Part shown: in pieces, positions 12,472 to 56,845 of the stretch
Layout: each line of letters starts with the position of its first letter
Numbering within the stretch: the stretch's first letter is position 1
From: Shigella phage ESH35
Reading direction: 5' to 3' (one strand)
DNA: 64,000 nt
Sequence record: ON528745
Made by a program: the position numbers and the translations under genes
Notes under the pieces: generated by a model
What the model was told of the DNA's origin: nothing
The model's input: the letters and a program-made list of their open reading frames with translations, nothing else
Databases searched by the model: none

Positions 12472-12672
12472 ATGAATCCTGAATCTAAATTATCGCAACG
12501 AATTGCTGAAGCTCGTCGCCAGTTCTTTGAAAATATGATAGCCCAGGGTATTGATGACGAAGTTTTTCTGAACTGGTTTTGGAATCACAAATATTCAAAA
12601 TGCGCAGGAGCAATATTAATATCAGCCGCAATGATGTACGAAGGCTGGAAGGGTGCCAAACAGTTTAGCTAA
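12472..12672 (+). CDS. hypothetical protein
   Basis: 66-aa ORF followed directly by GGGCTTCGGCCC terminator. Confidence 0.45.
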   Translation: MNPESKLSQRIAEARRQFFENMIAQGIDDEVFLNWFWNHKYSKCAGAILISAAMMYEGWKGAKQFS

Positions 12673-12690
12673 GGGCTTCGGCCCTTTTTG
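12672..12690 (+). terminator. intrinsic terminator (UUCG tetraloop)
   Basis: GGGCTTCGGCCC + TTTTTG. Confidence 0.6.
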
Positions 12691-12724
12691 GATAATAAAA
12701 TTTTAACGCAATTGAGGATAATGT

Positions 12725-15107: not shown

Positions 15108-16310
15108 ATGAAAGTATGTATTTTTATGGTTCGAGGTCTTGAAGGTTGTGGTGTAACTAAATTTTCTCTTGAGCAACGTGATTGGTTTATTAAGAATGGT
15201 CATGAAGTAACTTTGGTTTATGCTAAAGATAAATCATTTACTCGTAATTGCGCGCATGATTATAAATCATTTTCAATTCCGGTTTTATTGGCAAAAGAAT
15301 ATGATAAAACACTTAAGCTGGTAAATGATTGTGATATTCTAATTATCAATTCAGTTCCTGCTACTTCGGTTGAAGAAGACACTATTAATAACTATAAAAA
15401 AATTATTGATAACATTAAACCTTCTGTTCGTGTTGTAGTTTATCAACATGACCATTCTTCTCTTTCTTTGCGCCGAAATTTGGGATTAGAAGAAACTGTT
15501 CGTCGAGCTGATGTTATTTTTAGCCATTCTGATAATGGTGATTTTAATAAAGTTCTGATGAAAGAATGGTATCCTGAAACAGTTTCTCTGTTTGATGATA
15601 TTGAAGAAGCACCGACAGTATATAACTTTCAGCCTCCTATGGATATTGCGAAGGTTCGGTCAACCTACTGGAAAGATGTTTCTGAAATTAACATGAATAT
15701 CAACCGTTGGATTGGTCGTACGACCACATGGAAAGGTTTTTATCAGATGTTTGATTTTCATGAAAAACATCTTAAACCTGCAGGACTAAGTACTATTATG
15801 GAAGGTCTGGAACGTTCTCCAGCGTTCATTCCTATTAAAGAAAAAGGAATTCCATACGAGTATTATCGTCTTCATCAAGTAGACCAAATTAAAATTGCTC
15901 CTAATTTGCCAACGCAAATTCTTGACCGTTATGTAAATAGCGAAATGCTTGAACGTATGAGTAAATCCGGATTTGGTTATCAGTTGAGTAAGTTGGATAA
16001 AAAATATCTACAGCGTTCTTTAGAATATACTCATCTCGAGCTTGGTGCATGTGGAACAATTCCGGTATTTTGGAAATCTACTGGCGAAAATTTAAAATTC
16101 CGTGTTGATAATACTCCTTTGACCTCGCATGATAGCGGTATCATTTGGTTTGATGAAAATGATATGGAATCAACATTTGAACGTATTAAAGAACTGTCAT
16201 CTGACCGAGCTCTTTATGACCGTGAGCGAGAAAAAGCATATGAATTTTTGTATCAGCATCAAGATTCAAGCTTCTGCTTTAAAGAACAGTTTGACATTAT
16301 TACAAAATAA
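15108..16310 (+). CDS. a-gt: DNA alpha-glucosyltransferase
   Basis: 400 aa; near-identical to remembered T4 alpha-gt N-terminus MRICIFMARGLEGCGVTKFSLEQRDWFIKNGHEV. Confidence 0.9.
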   Translation: MKVCIFMVRGLEGCGVTKFSLEQRDWFIKNGHEVTLVYAKDKSFTRNCAHDYKSFSIPVLLAKEYDKTLKLVNDCDILIINSVPATSVEEDTINNYKKIIDNIKPSVRVVVYQHDHSSLSLRRNLGLEETVRRADVIFSHSDNGDFNKVLMKEWYPETVSLFDDIEEAPTVYNFQPPMDIAKVRSTYWKDVSEINMNINRWIGRTTTWKGFYQMFDFHEKHLKPAGLSTIMEGLERSPAFIPIKEKGIPYEYYRLHQVDQIKIAPNLPTQILDRYVNSEMLERMSKSGFGYQLSKLDKKYLQRSLEYTHLELGACGTIPVFWKSTGENLKFRVDNTPLTSHDSGIIWFDENDMESTFERIKELSSDRALYDREREKAYEFLYQHQDSSFCFKEQFDIITK

Positions 16311-16335
16311 AGGGCTTCGGCCCTTTAGCTTTATA
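16311..16335 (+). terminator. intrinsic terminator (UUCG tetraloop)
   Basis: GGGCTTCGGCCC + TTTAGCTTTA after alpha-gt. Confidence 0.6.
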
Positions 16336-21045: not shown

Positions 21046-21732
21046 ATGAAACTGTCTAAAGATACTACTGCTCTGCTTAAAAATTTCGCTACTATTAACT
21101 CTGGTATTATGCTTAAATCAGGTCAATTTATTATGACTCGTGCGGTTAATGGTACAACTTATGCGGAAGCAAATATTTCTGACGTTATTGATTTTGATGT
21201 AGCAATTTACGATTTGAACGGTTTTCTCGGTATTCTGTCTCTAGTTAATGATGATGCAGAAATTTCCCAGTCAGAAGATGGAAATATTAAAATTGCTGAT
21301 GCCCGCTCAACAATTTTTTGGCCAGCAGCCGATCCGAGTACAGTAGTTGCTCCTAATAAACCAATTCCATTCCCGGTAGCATCTGTTGTTACTGAAATTA
21401 AAGCTGAAGACCTTCAACAGCTGTTGCGTGTATCTCGTGGTCTGCAGATTGATACAATTGCTATCACGGTAAAAGAAGGTAAAATCGTAATTAACGGTTT
21501 TAATAAAGTAGAAGATTCTGCTCTTACCCGTGTTAAATATTCTTTGACTCTTGGTGATTATGATGGTGAAAATACATTTAATTTCATTATCAATATGGCA
21601 AATATGAAAATGCAACCAGGAAATTATAAACTTCTGCTCTGGGCAAAAGGTAAACAAGGCGCTGCTAAATTTGAAGGTGAACACGCGAATTATGTAGTAG
21701 CTCTTGAAGCTGATTCTACCCACGATTTTTAA
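21046..21732 (+). CDS. 45: sliding clamp gp45
   Basis: 228 aa; MKLSKDTTALLKNFATINSGIMLKSGQFIMTRAV recognised as T4 gp45. Confidence 0.95.
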   Translation: MKLSKDTTALLKNFATINSGIMLKSGQFIMTRAVNGTTYAEANISDVIDFDVAIYDLNGFLGILSLVNDDAEISQSEDGNIKIADARSTIFWPAADPSTVVAPNKPIPFPVASVVTEIKAEDLQQLLRVSRGLQIDTIAITVKEGKIVINGFNKVEDSALTRVKYSLTLGDYDGENTFNFIINMANMKMQPGNYKLLLWAKGKQGAAKFEGEHANYVVALEADSTHDF

Positions 21733-21734
21733 TA

Positions 21735-21755
21735 GAGGGCTTCGGCCCTTTATAA
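21735..21755 (+). terminator. intrinsic terminator (UUCG tetraloop)
   Basis: GGGCTTCGGCCC + TTTATAATTT after gene 45. Confidence 0.6.
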
Positions 21756-21783
21756 TTTACACTAAAACTTGAATGAGGAAATT

Positions 21784-23679: not shown

Positions 23680-23901
23680 ATGACTGCTATAATTCCGCAA
23701 GAATACATGGCGTCTCTTAAAGAAAAATATAATCTTTCTGCAACAGAAACACTTTTTGATTTACCAGAAAACCTCCAACTAAAATTTCAGGTAGAATTTC
23801 AAAAATTAGTTCACCCAGAACAAAAACACTTTACCGCAGTGGTTAAGTCAATTAATGCAGATGGATTAACAATTTTTCACCGACAACTGGTATTAATTTA
23901 A
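23680..23901 (+). CDS. hypothetical protein
   Basis: Track ORF 23638..23901 trimmed to ATG index 15; followed by GGGGCTTCGGCCCC terminator. Confidence 0.45.
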   Translation: MTAIIPQEYMASLKEKYNLSATETLFDLPENLQLKFQVEFQKLVHPEQKHFTAVVKSINADGLTIFHRQLVLI

Positions 23902-23904
23902 GCA

Positions 23905-23927
23905 AGGGGCTTCGGCCCCTTATTTGG
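23905..23927 (+). terminator. intrinsic terminator (UUCG tetraloop)
   Basis: GGGGCTTCGGCCCC + TTATTTGG before gene 43. Confidence 0.6.
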
Positions 23928-46871: not shown

Positions 46872-47137
46872 AAATTATGAAATATATTAATCGTTCTATC
46901 GCGGCATTAGTATTAGCAGTGTCTTTAGCAGGATGTACTGATGCTGATAATGCAACCAAAGTTTTATCTTCAAGTGGTTTTACTAATATTGAAATCACTG
47001 GATATAATTGGTTTGGTTGTTCTGAAAATGATTTCCAACATACTGGATTTCGTGCTATTGGACCTACTGGGCAGAAAGTAGAAGGAACAGTATGTTCTGG
47101 GCTGTTCTTTAAGGATTCAACTATTCGTTTTAAATAA
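46868..47137 (+). CDS. putative lipoprotein
   Basis: 89 aa; signal plus lipobox ..LAVSLAGC; followed by terminator. Confidence 0.5.
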   Translation: MKIMKYINRSIAALVLAVSLAGCTDADNATKVLSSSGFTNIEITGYNWFGCSENDFQHTGFRAIGPTGQKVEGTVCSGLFFKDSTIRFK

Positions 47138-47160
47138 AAGGCCTTCGGGCCTTTAGCTTT
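47138..47160 (+). terminator. intrinsic terminator (UUCG tetraloop)
   Basis: AGGCCTTCGGGCCT + TTAGCTTTA before gene 39. Confidence 0.55.
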
Positions 47161-47206
47161 ATGATTGCCGGAGTATAATATTCCCGAAACCAAACGAGGA
47201 TAAGTG

Positions 47207-51481: not shown

Positions 51482-52420
51482 ATGTACAATATTAAATGCC
51501 TGACCAAAAACGAACAAGCTGAAATTGTTAAGCTGTATTCAAGTGGTAATTACACCCAACAGGAATTGGCTGATTGGCAAGGTGTATCGGTTGACACAAT
51601 TCGTCGTGTTTTGAAAAATGCTGAAGAAGCTAAACGCTCTAAAGTTACTATTAGCGGTGATATTACAATTAAAGTTAATAGCGATGCAGTTATTGCTCCA
51701 GTTGCTAAATCTGACATTATTTGGAATGCATCTAAAAAATTCATTTCAATTACTGTTGACGGTGTAACTTATAACGCAACTCCTAATACTCATTCAAACT
51801 TCCAGGAAATTCTTAATCTGCTTGTAGCAGATAAGTTGGAAGAAGCGGCACAAAAAATTAATGTTCGTCGCGCTGTTGAAAAATATATTTCCGGCGATGT
51901 TCGAATTGAAGGCGGAAGCTTGTTCTATCAAAATATCGAATTACGGTCTGGTTTAGTTGATCGTATTCTCGATTCGATGGAAAAAGGTGAAAACTTTGAA
52001 TTTTATTTTCCGTTCTTGGAAAATCTGCTGGAAAACCCAAGCCAGAAAGCGGTATCTCGACTCTTTGATTTCTTGGTAGCAAACGATATTGAAATTACAG
52101 AAGATGGTTACTTCTATGCTTGGAAAGTAGTTCGTGACAACTACTTTGACTGTCACTCAAACACCTTTGATAACAGTCCTGGTAAAGTAGTTAAAATGCC
52201 GCGTACTCGTGTGAATGACGATGATACACAAACTTGTTCTCGTGGTCTGCATGTGTGTTCTAAATCTTATATTCGTCACTTTGGCAGTTCAACCAGCCGA
52301 GTTGTAAAAGTTAAAGTACATCCACGTGATGTAGTATCAATTCCGATTGATTACAACGATGCTAAAATGCGTACCTGCCAATACGAAGTAGTTGAAGACG
52401 TTACTGAACAATTTAAATAA
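51482..52420 (+). CDS. rIIB: RIIB protein
   Basis: 312 aa, exact T4 RIIB length; followed by terminator. Confidence 0.9.
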   Translation: MYNIKCLTKNEQAEIVKLYSSGNYTQQELADWQGVSVDTIRRVLKNAEEAKRSKVTISGDITIKVNSDAVIAPVAKSDIIWNASKKFISITVDGVTYNATPNTHSNFQEILNLLVADKLEEAAQKINVRRAVEKYISGDVRIEGGSLFYQNIELRSGLVDRILDSMEKGENFEFYFPFLENLLENPSQKAVSRLFDFLVANDIEITEDGYFYAWKVVRDNYFDCHSNTFDNSPGKVVKMPRTRVNDDDTQTCSRGLHVCSKSYIRHFGSSTSRVVKVKVHPRDVVSIPIDYNDAKMRTCQYEVVEDVTEQFK

Positions 52421-52440
52421 GGGCTTCGGCCCTTATCATA
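52418..52440 (+). terminator. intrinsic terminator (UUCG tetraloop)
   Basis: AAGGGCTTCGGCCCTT after rIIB. Confidence 0.55.
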
Positions 52441-52452
52441 TTAAGGAAAATT

Positions 52453-52647
52453 ATGTTAGGTTATCAAGCACGAGTAAAAGAAGAATACGATCAATTAATG
52501 CTCAAAATTAATGCACTGAGCAAATTTTTAGAAAGCGCAAAGTTTCTAACAGTTAACGCAGTTGAGCAAGAACTGCTACTTTCGCAGTTCATCTCAATGA
52601 AATCTTATGCTGAGTGTCTAGAGAAAAGAATCGCACAATTCAAATAA
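52453..52647 (+). CDS. hypothetical helical protein bracketed by two terminators
   Basis: 64-aa ORF; AAGGGCTTCGGCCCTT hairpins immediately before and after. Confidence 0.45.
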   Translation: MLGYQARVKEEYDQLMLKINALSKFLESAKFLTVNAVEQELLLSQFISMKSYAECLEKRIAQFK

Positions 52648-52649
52648 AA

Positions 52650-52674
52650 TAAGGGCTTCGGCCCTTTTGTTTTA
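52650..52674 (+). terminator. intrinsic terminator (UUCG tetraloop), duplicate of 52418 copy
   Basis: AAGGGCTTCGGCCCTTTTGTTTT. Confidence 0.6.
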
Positions 52675-52710
52675 AGAGAAATTATGATTCCGACATAAAG
52701 GAAAGTTTAA

Positions 52711-53268
52711 ATGCAGAAAACGAATCCGGGTTTACAGAGACTATTTCAGATTCCGACATTTACCCTATCGAACAGTGACTTGACTAGTGAAATGAAGGTC
52801 AAAATTGCTGATACAGCAAGATACTCTTTAAAACAAAACCCGAACCAGGATAAAGCAGAAGTTATCGAAAGATGCCGTATCGCTGTGTACGCAGAGTTTT
52901 TTGTGGCAGATTGGCTAAGCGGATATGTCAATAAAGGCCAAGAAAATGTCGATGATCCGTACACGTATGCATGGGATGTTTTAGCGCATCCAAAATATTG
53001 CGGGCTTCGTGTAGAAGTCAAAACACATCAAACTGACTCGCGTTGGATTTCGGTAACAACGGGATGCAGCGGAGAGTATCCATATGGTTCTGGAATAAAT
53101 TTAGGGCCCATTCTAAATCATCAAGTCGCTGACTGTATAATTATATTCAACACTAAAGAAATTCATCCAGGTGTCATCCAGTACACTCCGAAGTTCATCG
53201 GTGACAGAGAAGACCTTCGTAAGGTTGTAAGAAAAAGCAACTACAACGGATGGTATCTTTCCATTTAA
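52711..53268 (+). CDS. denB: probable endonuclease IV DenB
   Basis: 185 aa (T4 DenB length) in the position after rIIB. Confidence 0.6.
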   Translation: MQKTNPGLQRLFQIPTFTLSNSDLTSEMKVKIADTARYSLKQNPNQDKAEVIERCRIAVYAEFFVADWLSGYVNKGQENVDDPYTYAWDVLAHPKYCGLRVEVKTHQTDSRWISVTTGCSGEYPYGSGINLGPILNHQVADCIIIFNTKEIHPGVIQYTPKFIGDREDLRKVVRKSNYNGWYLSI

Positions 53269-53269
53269 A

Positions 53270-53344
53270 AATTTTTTCACAAAACGGTTTACATACCACA
53301 AGGACCGTGGTACTATTACCCTATCAACTACGGAGGAGCGGAAA
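53270..53344 (+). promoter_or_regulatory. early promoter/leader cassette copy D
   Basis: TTTTCACAAAACGGTTTAC...CGTGGTACTATTACCCTATCAACTACGGAGGAGCGGAAA. Confidence 0.6.
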
Positions 53345-53608
53345 ATGAAATTTAAATTTTATTACGCTAAACATAAAATAACTGATGAGTTTGTGTCAGT
53401 TGAATATTCTAGCGATGATGAAGGCATGATTTATACTCGCTTAGGATTATCGCATTGGGAGTCTGATCAGCCTTATTTTTCAACTCCCGAAGAAATTACA
53501 CGCTTAGTTAATGGTCATATGAATGACCACTGGAATGTAATTCTTTCAGATAGTCTTAAAGCGGCTATTAATAGTAATGAAATGAAAATCGCTGAGATTG
53601 AGCTATGA
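53345..53608 (+). CDS. hypothetical protein
   Basis: 87-aa ORF driven by promoter-cassette copy D. Confidence 0.45.
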   Translation: MKFKFYYAKHKITDEFVSVEYSSDDEGMIYTRLGLSHWESDQPYFSTPEEITRLVNGHMNDHWNVILSDSLKAAINSNEMKIAEIEL

Positions 53609-54263
53609 GTTCATTATGGTGGTGTTTCGTTTGGTTAATTAGTATTCCATTAATTTGTTTAACATTTACTTTTGTGATGAGGTTATTATGAAAATTTTGA
53701 ATTCTGTACTTATTGCTTGTGCGTGGTGGGTTGCACAGGTTTCAGCAGTGGTGATTGGTATTCACATTTATTACGAATATTTTTAAAAAGTTGTTTACAA
53801 GACTGTTCTTCCGTGGTACTATTACCCTATCAACTACGGAGGAACAGAAAATGAAAAAGATTGTTAAAGCTATATGGAATGTAGTTATAATACTAATAGT
53901 TTTGAGTATATTCCCAATCGTTTTAATGATTGATGTATTAAACGTTTACTTTGGATTTATGTGAGGAAAATATGAATATTGCAAAATTATTAGGAGTTAT
54001 TTCATTTATTTGTTGGATAGTAGCATGTGTTTTAACTATCTGTATTGATGCTAGCAGTGTGTTTTCACAAGCTTTAGCCCAGGGTATGTGTGCATATTTA
54101 ACATTTGTGTTGTTATCTACTAATGATTAAGAAAATCTTGGGCTATTCACTAGCCCTTGCTACTTTATTGGTAGCACTATATTATGGAGTAATGTTCGGA
54201 TTAATTCAAGTCGTGCTTTTCATTTCTGATGTTATTATGGCACTACATTCACTAGTATGGTAA
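53604..54263 (+). other. cluster of at least five short hydrophobic ORFs (28-52 aa), ndd/ac/stp-equivalent region
   Basis: Read by eye: MSSLWWCFVWLISIPLICL.., MKILNSVLIACAWWVAQV.., MKKIVKAIWNVVIILIVLSIFPIVLMI.. (track 53755..53964 trimmed), MNIAKLLGVISFICWIVACVL.., MIKKILGYSLALATLLVALYYGVMFGL..; individual coordinates approximate. Confidence 0.35.
53787..53850 (+). promoter_or_regulatory. early promoter/leader cassette copy E
   Basis: GTTTACAAGACTGTTCTTCCGTGGTACTATTACCCTATCAACTACGGAGGAACAGAAA. Confidence 0.6.
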
Positions 54264-54267
54264 ATTT

Positions 54268-55596
54268 ATGCAACTGAATAATCGCGATTTAAAAAGTATC
54301 ATTGATAATGAAGCACTGGCTTATGCTATGTACACGGTTGAAAATCGTGCTATCCCAAATATGATTGACGGATTTAAGCCAGTTCAACGATTTGTTATTG
54401 CTCGAGCTCTTGATTTGGCACGAGGAAATAAAGATAAGTTTCACAAACTCGCTTCTATCGCAGGTGGTGTAGCGGACCTTGGATATCATCATGGCGAAAA
54501 CTCTGCACAAGACGCAGGTGCTTTGATGGCTAACACTTGGAATAATAACTTTCCTCTGTTAGATGGTCAAGGAAACTTCGGTTCTCGTACCGTTCAAAAA
54601 GCAGCGGCAAGTCGTTATATTTTTGCTCGTGTAAGTAAAAATTTCTATAACGTATATAAAGATACTGAGTATGCTCCGGTACATCAAGATAAAGAACACA
54701 TTCCGCCTGCTTTCTATTTGCCTATTATTCCTACTGTTCTTCTTAATGGCGTTTCCGGTATTGCAACTGGTTATGCAACTTACATTCTTCCTCATAGTGT
54801 TTCTTCTGTCAAGAAAGCTGTACTGCAAGCTCTTCAAGGAAAGAAAGTAACTAAACCGAAGGTAGAATTCCCAGAATTTCGTGGTGAAGTTGTTGAAATT
54901 GATGGGCAGTATGAAATTCGTGGAACATATAAGTTTACTTCACGAACTCAAATGCATATCACTGAGATTCCATATAAGTATGATCGTGAAACTTATGTGA
55001 GTAAAATCTTAGACCCACTTGAAGATAAAGGCTTCATTACATGGGATGATGCTTGCGGTGAGCACGGTTTTGGATTCAAAGTTAAATTCCGCAAAGAATA
55101 TTCTTTGAGCGATAATGAAGAAGAACGCCATGCAAAAATTATGAAAGACTTCGGGTTGATTGAGCGTCGTTCTCAGAATATTACGGTTATTAATGAGAAA
55201 GGAAAACTACAAGTTTACGATAACGTAGTTGATTTAATTAAAGATTTCGTTGAAGTTCGTAAAACTTATGTCCAAAAACGAATTGATAACAAAATTAAAG
55301 AAACTGAGTCAGCTTTTCGTTTAGCCTTTGCCAAGGCACATTTCATTAAGAAAGTAATTTCAGGTGAAATTATTGTACAGGGTAAAACTCGTAAAGAACT
55401 GACCGAAGAACTTTCGAAAATCGATATGTATTCTTCTTATGTTGATAAATTAGTTGGAATGAATATTTTTCATATGACTTCCGACGAAGCAAAGAAACTT
55501 GCTGAAGAAGCTAAAGCTAAAAAAGAAGAAAACGAATATTGGAAAACTACTGATGTAGTTACTGAATACACCAAAGATTTAGAGGAAATCAAATGA
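54268..55596 (+). CDS. 52: DNA topoisomerase II medium subunit gp52 (GyrA-like)
   Basis: 442 aa; IPNMIDGFKPVQRFVIARAL.. recognised as T4 gp52. Confidence 0.93.
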   Translation: MQLNNRDLKSIIDNEALAYAMYTVENRAIPNMIDGFKPVQRFVIARALDLARGNKDKFHKLASIAGGVADLGYHHGENSAQDAGALMANTWNNNFPLLDGQGNFGSRTVQKAAASRYIFARVSKNFYNVYKDTEYAPVHQDKEHIPPAFYLPIIPTVLLNGVSGIATGYATYILPHSVSSVKKAVLQALQGKKVTKPKVEFPEFRGEVVEIDGQYEIRGTYKFTSRTQMHITEIPYKYDRETYVSKILDPLEDKGFITWDDACGEHGFGFKVKFRKEYSLSDNEEERHAKIMKDFGLIERRSQNITVINEKGKLQVYDNVVDLIKDFVEVRKTYVQKRIDNKIKETESAFRLAFAKAHFIKKVISGEIIVQGKTRKELTEELSKIDMYSSYVDKLVGMNIFHMTSDEAKKLAEEAKAKKEENEYWKTTDVVTEYTKDLEEIK

Positions 55597-55742
55597 GTCC
55601 ATTCATTGGTATTACAAGCGCTGCATTAGTATCTGGTAGCATTTTACTGGCGGGTTTAGGCGTTGTTCCAGCCGTAGCAGGAGGTCTTCTTGCGTTCGGA
55701 ATTCAACGTGTTATCATGACAGTTATCACAGTCATGCAGTAA
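55593..55742 (+). CDS. small membrane protein (52.1 position)
   Basis: Not in track; about 49-aa Gly/Ala-rich hydrophobic ORF with ATGA overlap at gene 52 stop. Confidence 0.3.
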   Translation: MSPFIGITSAALVSGSILLAGLGVVPAVAGGLLAFGIQRVIMTVITVMQ

Positions 55743-55745
55743 TTT

Positions 55746-55776
55746 TAGGGAGAGCCGAGGCTCTCCCTTTTTTATT
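55746..55776 (+). terminator. intrinsic terminator
   Basis: GGGAGAGCCGAGGCTCTCCC + TTTTTTATTTT after gene 52.1. Confidence 0.7.
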
Positions 55777-55779
55777 TTA

Positions 55780-55869
55780 AAATTTTTTTCACAAAACGGT
55801 TTACAACCAAAGCATACTGTGGTACTATACAACTATCAACTACTGATACAGAATTACGGAGATTAGAAA
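55780..55869 (+). promoter_or_regulatory. early promoter/leader cassette copy F (upstream of motA)
   Basis: TTTTCACAAAACGGTTTAC...CTGTGGTACTATACAACTATCAACTACTGATACAGA. Confidence 0.6.
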
Positions 55870-56505
55870 ATGTCTAAAGTAACTTACATCATCAAAGCTT
55901 CTAACGATGTTCTGAATGAAAAAACTGCTGCGATTTTAATTACTATTGCTAAGAAAGATTTCATTACAGCTGCAGAAGTTCGTGAGGTGCATCCAGATTT
56001 AGGTAACGCAGTAGTTAATAGTAATATTGGGGTATTGATTAAAAAAGGCCTGGTGGAGAAATCTGGTGATGGATTAATCATTACAGGTGAAGCTCAGGAT
56101 ATTATTTCAAACGCAGCAACTTTATACGCGCAGGAAAATGCTCCGGAACTGCTGAAAAAACGAGCAACTCGTAAAGCTCGTGAGATTACTTCTGATATGG
56201 AAGAAGATAAAGACCTCATGTTAAAACTTTTAGATGAAAATGGATTTGTTCTTAAAAAGGTCGAAACTTATCGCAGTAACTATCTCGCTATTTTAGAAAA
56301 ACGCACTCACGGAATTCGTAATTTTGAAATTAACAATAATGGAAATATGCGAATTTTTGGATACAAAATGATGGAACATCATATTCAGAAATTTACTGAT
56401 ATCGGAATGTCATGTAAAATCGCTAAAAACGGTAATGTGTATCTTGACATTAAACGTTCAGCAGAAAACATTGAAGCTGTAATCACTGTAGCATCTGAAC
56501 TGTGA
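55870..56505 (+). CDS. motA: middle-transcription activator MotA
   Basis: 211 aa (T4 MotA length); sequence recognised. Confidence 0.85.
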   Translation: MSKVTYIIKASNDVLNEKTAAILITIAKKDFITAAEVREVHPDLGNAVVNSNIGVLIKKGLVEKSGDGLIITGEAQDIISNAATLYAQENAPELLKKRATRKAREITSDMEEDKDLMLKLLDENGFVLKKVETYRSNYLAILEKRTHGIRNFEINNNGNMRIFGYKMMEHHIQKFTDIGMSCKIAKNGNVYLDIKRSAENIEAVITVASEL

Positions 56506-56515
56506 GGAATAAATA

Positions 56516-56845
56516 ATGAACAAGTTAGAAATTATCAATGAACTTCGTCGTTGTGCAGAACCTACTCAAGAGGGTTGGGATATCTGGTACCATGGAGCTT
56601 ATCTTGGAAGTATCGTAAAGATTAAGACTGGTAAATATTTAATCATCCGTGGCGGTTCTGAAGCCTCTATGGGAATTCGCAAGAACTTTATGGCAGCGAT
56701 CAGTACTTTTGTTCAAGCGGCTTATGAAATTTACCTTGCTGATTATAAAGAATTCCAGGAATCTCAACCAGTTATTCGCTCAATTGGTGTTAACAAAGCT
56801 CAACAGAAAACTTTGTGGCAGCGTATTAAAGGATGGTTTAAATGA
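56516..56845 (+). CDS. hypothetical protein
   Basis: 109-aa ORF. Confidence 0.5.

Follow-up and report, generated by a model that had tools for sequence, protein, structure and literature searches.

Known T4 D-region membrane-peptide genes beside a repeat-bounded deletion of ndd and stp in Shigella phage ESH35

Between denB and gene 52, phage T4 carries a series of small early genes, in the order ndd.6, ndd.5, ndd.4, ndd.3, ndd.2a, ndd.2, ndd.1, ndd, stp, ac and 52.1. Ndd is the nucleoid disruption protein (PF06591) of about 150 amino acids (aa), and Stp is a 26-aa activator of the PrrC anticodon nuclease (PF08133). The T4 mutant sa-delta-9 has lost about 3.4 kb here, comprising denB, ndd.6 to ndd.1, ndd, stp, ac and 52.1; it is viable, with a yield about half that of the wild type, and the stimulation of phospholipid synthesis by the phage, notably that of phosphatidylglycerol, is abolished (PMC6071114). 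T4 without ac is resistant to acriflavine, and expression of Ac sensitizes Escherichia coli to acriflavine and ampicillin; Ac, for which a two-helix hairpin is predicted, has been proposed to block AcrAB-TolC efflux (bioRxiv 10.1101/2025.06.30.662393), a proposal repeated in a 2026 PNAS paper (PMC13250531). Hyperplastic regions of such genomes also contain promoter-early stem-loop (PeSL) cassettes, repeats of about 70-80 bp that border insertions and deletions (Arbiol et al., 2010, PMC2839356; Comeau et al., 2014, PMC4122927). Each joins a sigma-70-like early promoter to an AT-rich tract and a stem-loop, the latter sometimes overlapping the -10 element; the exchange at ndd.4/.5 of T4 serves as an example in the 2014 paper. 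Here we describe a stretch of 64,000 nucleotides (nt) from Shigella phage ESH35 (record ON528745), hereafter the window, in which five small hydrophobic open reading frames (ORFs) occupy positions 53604-54263 on the + strand. We consider it likely, with a probability of roughly 0.88, that these are known membrane-protein genes of the T4 D region, expressed together early in infection, and that ndd and stp were lost next to them through recombination between repeats.

An earlier note on this DNA placed the cluster in the T4 denB-to-52 interval and counted at least five head-to-tail hydrophobic ORFs in it, both of which hold, but its suggestion that the peptides may be novel does not. Orthology was assessed with the annotated proteins of T4 and wV7 as tblastn queries on the window, full-length matches being required. 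The five T4 matches (NP_049886, NP_049885, NP_049884, NP_049877 and NP_049876, encoded at T4 165,209-166,996) cover the whole peptide, with E-values of 1e-17 to 1e-29 within the window, and each of the five peptides matches a PHROG profile end to end. By homology, the cluster is thus T4 ndd.6, ndd.5, ndd.4, ac and 52.1, genes already catalogued: they are 96-98% identical to the T4 proteins and annotated in T4, wV7 and hundreds of other records, which makes them ordinary orthologues of T4 ac and the ndd.x genes. The note listed ac among the genes that T4 encodes here without recognizing it in the fourth ORF. In the local copy of Pfam only 52.1 found a family (DUF7396, 81.9 bits against a cut-off of 27), with no match for ndd.6, ndd.5, ndd.4, ac or the nearby motA.1. 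Among the 50,697 records of the phage collection searched, 498 contain the ndd.6-ndd.4 block and 501 that of ac-52.1. In the full-text literature, a search on the names ndd.4, ndd.5 and ndd.6 gave a PeSL paper as its sole relevant match, almost all others dealing with neurodevelopmental disorders.

The surroundings agree with this identification. Positions 51482-56505 (+ strand) read rIIB, denB.1, denB, the small ORFs, gene 52, a 49-aa ORF and MotA, a gene content and order that mark the stretch as the "D region" (rIIB-denB-52-motA) of a T4-like phage, a Tequatrovirus. Alignment and annotation show collinearity with T4, wV7 and Sf25, and the 28 close relatives within the comparison set of 31 related loci agree in strand and gene order. 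With T4 the window shares the order, orientation and overlaps of the five genes and an early promoter before ndd.4; their lengths are equal except for ndd.4 and Ac. Megablast with 53250-54300 matched 506 phage records, nearly all of them Escherichia, Shigella or Yersinia Tequatrovirus, and the nearest sequenced relatives are about 94-96% identical over 20 kb. The phage is an ordinary member of its genus and the locus a textbook hyperplastic region.

Its departure from T4 lies between ndd.4 and ac. The absence of ndd and stp, remarked on in the earlier note, is borne out across the 64-kb window, where tblastn gives nothing significant for either (best E 0.22-0.30 for Ndd; for Stp 0.05, over 14 residues at 36% identity). 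Where T4 has ndd.3, ndd.2a, ndd.2, ndd.1, ndd and stp, the window has none of them; the end of ndd.4 lies directly upstream of ac, and the T4 interval 165,509-166,623 has no counterpart. Window positions 53576-53976 align with T4 167,025-166,624 and positions 53961-56600 with T4 165,508-162,872, the two segments overlapping by 16 nt. The overlap, at 53961..53976, is a single copy of the 16-nt repeat GTGAGGAAAATATGAA, seen both in the pairwise alignment and with the sequences set side by side. T4 reads ...GGATTTAT-GTGAGGAAAATATGAA-CGTAAAC... at the start of ndd.3 and ...GGACGCCA-GTGAGGAAAATATGAA-TATTGCAAAA... at the start of ac, and the window reads ...GGATTTAT-GTGAGGAAAATATGAA-TATTGCAAAA... 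at the junction. The repeat holds the Shine-Dalgarno (SD) sequence, the spacer and the ATG plus one A of both ndd.3 and ac. Relative to T4, exactly the 1,131 bp (T4 coordinates) from one 16-nt direct repeat to the other have been deleted, with nothing put in their place. The deletion removes ndd.3, ndd.2a, ndd.2, ndd.1, ndd and stp, and leaves ac intact, its ribosome-binding site (RBS) unchanged, right after ndd.4. To judge from the junction, homologous or slipped recombination between the two copies of GTGAGGAAAATATGAA would have excised the cassette. Both copies are present in T4 and 24 close relatives, about 1.12-1.135 kb apart and flanking ndd.3 through stp, so the substrate for such a deletion is widespread.

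The five genes that remain are all started by ATG. ndd.6 (53605..53691, +) encodes 28 aa with one hydrophobic segment, is 96.4% identical to T4 Ndd.6 over 28/28 residues, and matches phrog_8851 over 1-28/28; its ATG overlaps the stop codon of an upstream 87-aa ORF (ATGA at 53605), and its SD is weak. It overlaps ndd.5 in the same manner (ATGA at 53688). ndd.5 (53688..53786, +) encodes 32 aa, not 43, with one hydrophobic segment, and is 96.9% identical to T4 Ndd.5 and 100% to wV7 gp006 (phrog_5011). ndd.4 (53851..53964, +; RB32ORF264c) encodes 37 aa, not 69, with one transmembrane (TM) segment, 97.6% identical to T4 Ndd.4 and 100% to wV7 gp007 (phrog_3098); PF26889 (Phage_T4_Y16N) is precomputed on identical proteins. 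ac (53972..54130, +), which starts 7 nt past the ndd.4 stop, encodes 52 aa, not 59, with two apolar segments, and is 96.1% identical to T4 Ac (phrog_2501; PF26944, Phage_T4_Ac, in relatives); the Ac protein is 100% identical in many relatives. 52.1 (54123..54263, +) shares its first 8 nt with the end of ac and is separated from gene 52 by 4 nt; it encodes a membrane peptide of 46 aa, not 52, 97.8% identical to T4 gp52.1 (DUF7396/PF24129, E 3.5e-23; phrog_3595). The TTG starts in a mechanical ORF list overstate three of the ORFs, and the longer TTG-started versions (43, 69, 59 and 52 aa) were rejected as real genes because orthologues, SD positions and gene overlaps favor the internal ATGs. ndd.4 of T4 is annotated at 42 aa (MEEQKMKK...) through a T4-specific ACG-to-ATG change; the upstream start of T4 is ACG in the window (53833-53853) and in seven other relatives inspected. 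The T4 annotation is thus probably over-extended, the conserved 37-aa form starting at the second ATG.

That the peptides are of membrane type, as had been claimed, is upheld by the strong hydrophobicity of all five (mean Kyte-Doolittle value 1.26-1.87; best 19-residue segment 2.2-3.1). The further claim of one TM helix each fits Ndd.6, Ndd.5 and Ndd.4 but not Ac, which has two apolar segments (residues 6-25 and 38-50); 52.1 is hydrophobic across nearly its entire length, which would be long enough for two membrane segments. Hydrophobicity by itself is weak evidence for a gene and is not beyond chance: among ATG-started ORFs of 28-60 aa in all six frames of the whole window, 32/217 reach a mean of 1.2 or more. 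The ORFs are considered real because of their conservation, purifying selection and coupled gene junctions. The ratio of nonsynonymous to synonymous polymorphism (pN/pS), computed from at most 29 sequences per gene, is 0.09 for ndd.6, 0.12 for ndd.5, 0.03 for ac (13 DNA variants, 2 protein variants) and 0.30 for 52.1, so these four genes are under purifying selection (0.03-0.30); ndd.4 varies too little for the ratio to inform. Homologues of ndd.6, ndd.4, ac and 52.1 are recognizable even in a distant locus of the set, L011, whose DenB is only 45% identical.

Of the five peptides only Ac has a known function, as the classical determinant of acridine sensitivity, established by genetics and more recently by knockout and expression data. 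The window carries a T4-type allele of ac with an extra Thr three codons before the stop, making its product one Thr longer than T4 Ac; a Thr-insertion allele, as in PP01, has been reported to be still sensitive (bioRxiv 10.1101/2025.06.30.662393). Its identity of 96-100% to the alleles studied suggests that the Ac of the window would confer acriflavine sensitivity on the infected cell. At least two ac alleles occur in close relatives, the T4 type (96-100%, including the window) and the type of wV7 (L001, 3339-3491) and FJ839693 (L026), which is 40-45% identical; the occurrence of a divergent ac within near-identical flanks suggests allelic replacement in those phages.

The other four genes, ndd.6, ndd.5, ndd.4 and 52.1, are dispensable in the laboratory. 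Since the interval missing from sa-delta-9 is needed for the stimulation of phosphatidylglycerol synthesis, our best guess is that the peptides modulate proteins of the host envelope or membrane, as microproteins made early and placed in the inner membrane. They would most likely enter the inner membrane as one- or two-helix microproteins. The label "outer membrane protein" that databases attach to ndd.5 and ndd.6 stems from old localization predictions and is, in our judgement, implausible for alpha-helical hydrophobic peptides. A role of these four peptides in abortive infection is neither supported nor excluded; the one peptide of the region with a known link to abortive infection is Stp, through PrrC activation, and it is deleted here.

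Expression would begin at two predicted promoters of a strong sigma-70-like early type. Cassette D (53270..53349, +), downstream of denB, has a -35 element at 53288 and an extended -10 element, TGGTACTAT, ending at 53316, followed by the SD GGAGG (repeat families D1-D3). Cassette E (53776..53855, +), of PeSL type, has its -35 element at 53794 and its -10 element ending at 53822. In a promoter scan both share GTTTAC, a 17-nt spacer and TGGTACTAT, with an A/T run upstream and a TG extension (53270-53316 and 53776-53822). The two promoters (53288-53316 and 53794-53822) are expected to fire immediately after infection, and the T4 transcripts of ndd.6, ndd.5, ndd.4, ac and 52.1 are all classed as early (PMC9697503, Table S2). 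Two of the peptides had been thought to be driven by D and E; this stands for E (53776-53855), directly before ndd.4, but D precedes the 87-aa ORF, outside 53604-54263. Cassette D would drive the 87-aa ORF and then, through translational coupling, ndd.6 and ndd.5. Coupled translation along the cluster is suggested by the ATGA and 8-nt overlaps and by SDs that overlap the preceding stop codon.

Cassette E also contains a 15-bp inverted repeat (53803-53817 / 53833-53847; dG -22.7 kcal/mol, z -3.98) with the -10 element between its arms. The 5' arm falls within the promoter spacer and the 3' arm covers the GGAGG SD of ndd.4, so that read-through transcripts may mask this SD, and transcripts from the local promoter, lacking the 5' arm, may leave it free. 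The 5'-arm variants inspected among relatives are C/T changes opposite G, which keep the pairing. Cassette D has no significant hairpin (z -0.57). The same SD-covering design is seen in cassette A (1034-1100; dG -25.4 kcal/mol, z -5.6). The strongest terminator-like site downstream of the cluster, with a 9-bp stem, 6 G-C pairs and a T-run, lies at 55747..55768 (+), and a scan from 53300 to this hairpin reported no terminator-like site whose stem exceeds 7 pairs; transcripts therefore probably continue from the peptide genes into gene 52 and motA.1. This arrangement suggests that the peptide genes are leader genes of early gene 52 transcripts.

Several points weigh against the reading of the cluster as known membrane genes, co-expressed early, beside a repeat-mediated loss. 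ndd and stp might sit elsewhere in the genome, beyond the 64 kb seen, and the deletion could stem from laboratory propagation or from an assembly error. The link of Ac to AcrAB-TolC is a preprint hypothesis, and the effect on lipid synthesis has been traced no further than to a 3.4-kb deletion in which denB, ndd and stp are lost as well. Translation is genetically established for ac only, which leaves ndd.6, ndd.5, ndd.4 and 52.1. The variable codons of ndd.4 (1 synonymous, 4 amino-acid-changing) give a pN/pS of 1.1, on very low diversity. Finally, Ndd.6, Ndd.5, Ndd.4, 52.1, Ac, Stp and MotA.1 went undetected in a shotgun proteome of T4 in which Ndd and Ndd.1 were detected (PMC9697503, Table S2). 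Non-detection is expected for tiny hydrophobic peptides, though it is not positive evidence for them.

The deletion of ndd.3 to stp may be absent from the natural phage, having arisen by assembly collapse at the 16-nt repeat or by a deletion sweeping a laboratory stock; we regard this as unlikely, although the rarity of the junction speaks for it. ndd is kept in 31/31 comparison loci and stp in 28 of them, and ndd-stp DNA occurs in 546 phage records; exact look-ups of DenB and Ndd.4 returned 20 contigs, with ndd in every one. A 181-nt blastn query spanning the junction found none of the phage records covering at least 80% of it, and an exact 34-nt pattern gave 0 matches in IMG/VR, metagenome contigs and GTDB genome contigs. 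On these searches the deletion is unique to date, and it is the one unusual feature of the cluster. T4 stocks readily yield short-repeat deletions, which fits an origin in the flask. For small patches of homology, see Singer et al. (1982), cited in PMC2839356. Assembly collapse is itself unlikely, since a repeat of 16 nt is below the k-mers normally used by assemblers. As for a stock, the product is in frame, the RBS of ac is kept and only dispensable genes are lost, so the genome would be viable either way, and the molecular event is identical whether it took place in nature or in the flask; the two origins are indistinguishable from sequence.

It is likewise doubtful, in our estimate, that the loss of ndd.3 through stp is an adaptive natural variant, and not a neutral or laboratory accident, which gives up nucleoid disruption together with Stp. 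If it were, the phage would escape the abortive infection that Stp triggers through PrrC, and possibly also abortive infection that senses Ndd. The membrane peptides would then be the indispensable part of the D region, retained for that reason, and the widespread 16-nt RBS repeat would serve as a recurrent, built-in "eject switch" for the cassette.

Part of the cluster, above all ndd.4 and ndd.6 with its weak initiation, might consist of untranslated chance ORFs, lying where the early gene 52 transcript has a conserved 5' leader or regulatory stretch. Their absence from the T4 proteome, the weak SD of ndd.6, the ndd.4 ratio near 1 and the frequency of short hydrophobic ORFs by chance in T-rich sequence (the 32/217 above) all lean this way, yet we hold it to be improbable. 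ndd.6 shows a low pN/pS (0.09) and keeps homologues at 48-59% identity in phages whose DenB is 45-63% identical. For ndd.4 there are a promoter of its own, a strong and ideally spaced GGAGG SD, a homologue 61% identical in L011 and the family PF26889. The reading frames stay open in the 27-28 loci that give full-length, ungapped matches. Weaker still is the proposal of the earlier note that the peptides are novel, phage-specific modulators of host interaction or abortive infection that replaced ndd and stp: they are early, small and hydrophobic, with no function assigned to most of them, and ndd and stp are indeed absent, but with all five at 96-100% in T4, wV7 and about 500 other records that also carry ndd and stp, and with the gap a clean deletion without insert, we regard it as very improbable.

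Around the cluster, the known D-region genes that we read as its context continue on the same strand. Gene 52, for the medium subunit of topoisomerase II, lies at 54268..55596 (+; ORF list, annotation and alignment). Overlapping its stop is the motA.1 orthologue (55593..55742, +), whose 49-aa, Gly/Ala-rich, hydrophobic product is 100% identical to T4 MotA.1 (phrog_3487; pN/pS 0.07); it is a sixth small hydrophobic gene of the same kind, just outside 53604-54263. Antisense genes in the cluster were considered and rejected, as 0 minus-strand ORFs of at least 20 aa lie inside 53484-54288. An Rfam scan of 52000-56500 at E <= 1 gave two sub-threshold chance matches only (CrcZ, 22.6 bits against 95, and REN-SRE).

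Upstream, the 87-aa ORF (53345..53608, +) encodes an acidic, soluble protein of the wV7 gp005 / RB69ORF270c type, 98.9% identical to wV7 gp005 (phrog_2390), with no match in Pfam. It has no counterpart in T4, and the left border of the insertion that carries it, relative to T4, lies in cassette D. Of the 31 related loci, 27 have the ORF, as one of two alleles that share about 96-100% or about 52-57% identity with the window copy (pN/pS 0.43). Further upstream, positions 52683-52775 correspond at 90% identity to the C-terminal 31 residues of wV7 gp003, a 109-aa DUF7418 protein whose gene many relatives carry between denB.1 and denB. This stretch is out of frame with denB, runs over codons 1-22 of the 185-aa DenB ORF and looks like the remnant of a deleted gene. 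It leaves two candidate starts for DenB, 52711 and the internal Met chosen in the wV7 annotation (158 aa). A hairpin motif, GGGCTTCGGCCC, with a GC stem, a TTCG loop and an AT-rich tail, recurs intergenically; the repeat listing gives copies at 52409-52449, 52641-52681, 12661-12701, 16304-16334, 21729-21759, 23892-23921 and 47132-47162. Two copies flank denB.1, and the one at 52651-52666 is terminator-like on both strands.

As a discovery the cluster carries little weight, its peptides being catalogued in T4 and found in hundreds of genomes. Purifying selection nonetheless marks these microproteins as reasonable targets for studies of how phages modulate host membranes, as in the inhibition of efflux by Ac or the stimulation of phosphatidylglycerol synthesis. 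The phage is also a ready-made natural ndd/stp null with an otherwise intact D region, useful for the roles of Ndd and Stp beyond laboratory hosts, and the junction at the 16-nt RBS repeat offers a clean example of T4-type cassette loss that spares the downstream translation signals.

Compared with described systems, the locus is close, besides T4, to D regions of the wV7 (NC_019505, gp005-gp013) or RB32 type. Window positions 52697-53976 are 97.3% identical to wV7 and positions 53576-53964 are 100% identical, and the two share the 87-aa ORF between denB and ndd.6 that T4 is without. wV7 differs in having a divergent ac allele (45% identity to that of the window) and an extra DUF7418 gene before denB, and in keeping ndd.3 through stp. 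AcrZ of E. coli (49 aa) is a small inner-membrane protein that binds AcrB and modulates its substrate preference rather than blocking it. Ac, for which AcrAB-TolC is the proposed target, is similar to it in size and likewise hydrophobic and helical; the likeness is meant as a functional analogy, with no sequence relationship claimed. Cassette E, with its promoter and stem-loop, fits the PeSL description, whereas cassette D is without a stem. In cassette E the 3' stem arm coincides with the SD, so the structure may mask translation on read-through transcripts rather than terminate transcription. The deletion of ndd.3 to stp arose at the 16-nt RBS repeat and not at a PeSL. The T4 deletions sa-delta-9 and rII-delta-DD2 (rIIB-gene 52) show that T4 can do without the entire interval in laboratory hosts (PMC6071114), and the deletion described here is a smaller one inside the same interval: sa-delta-9 loses denB and the five peptides, whereas the window keeps them and loses only the 1,131 bp from ndd.3 through stp.

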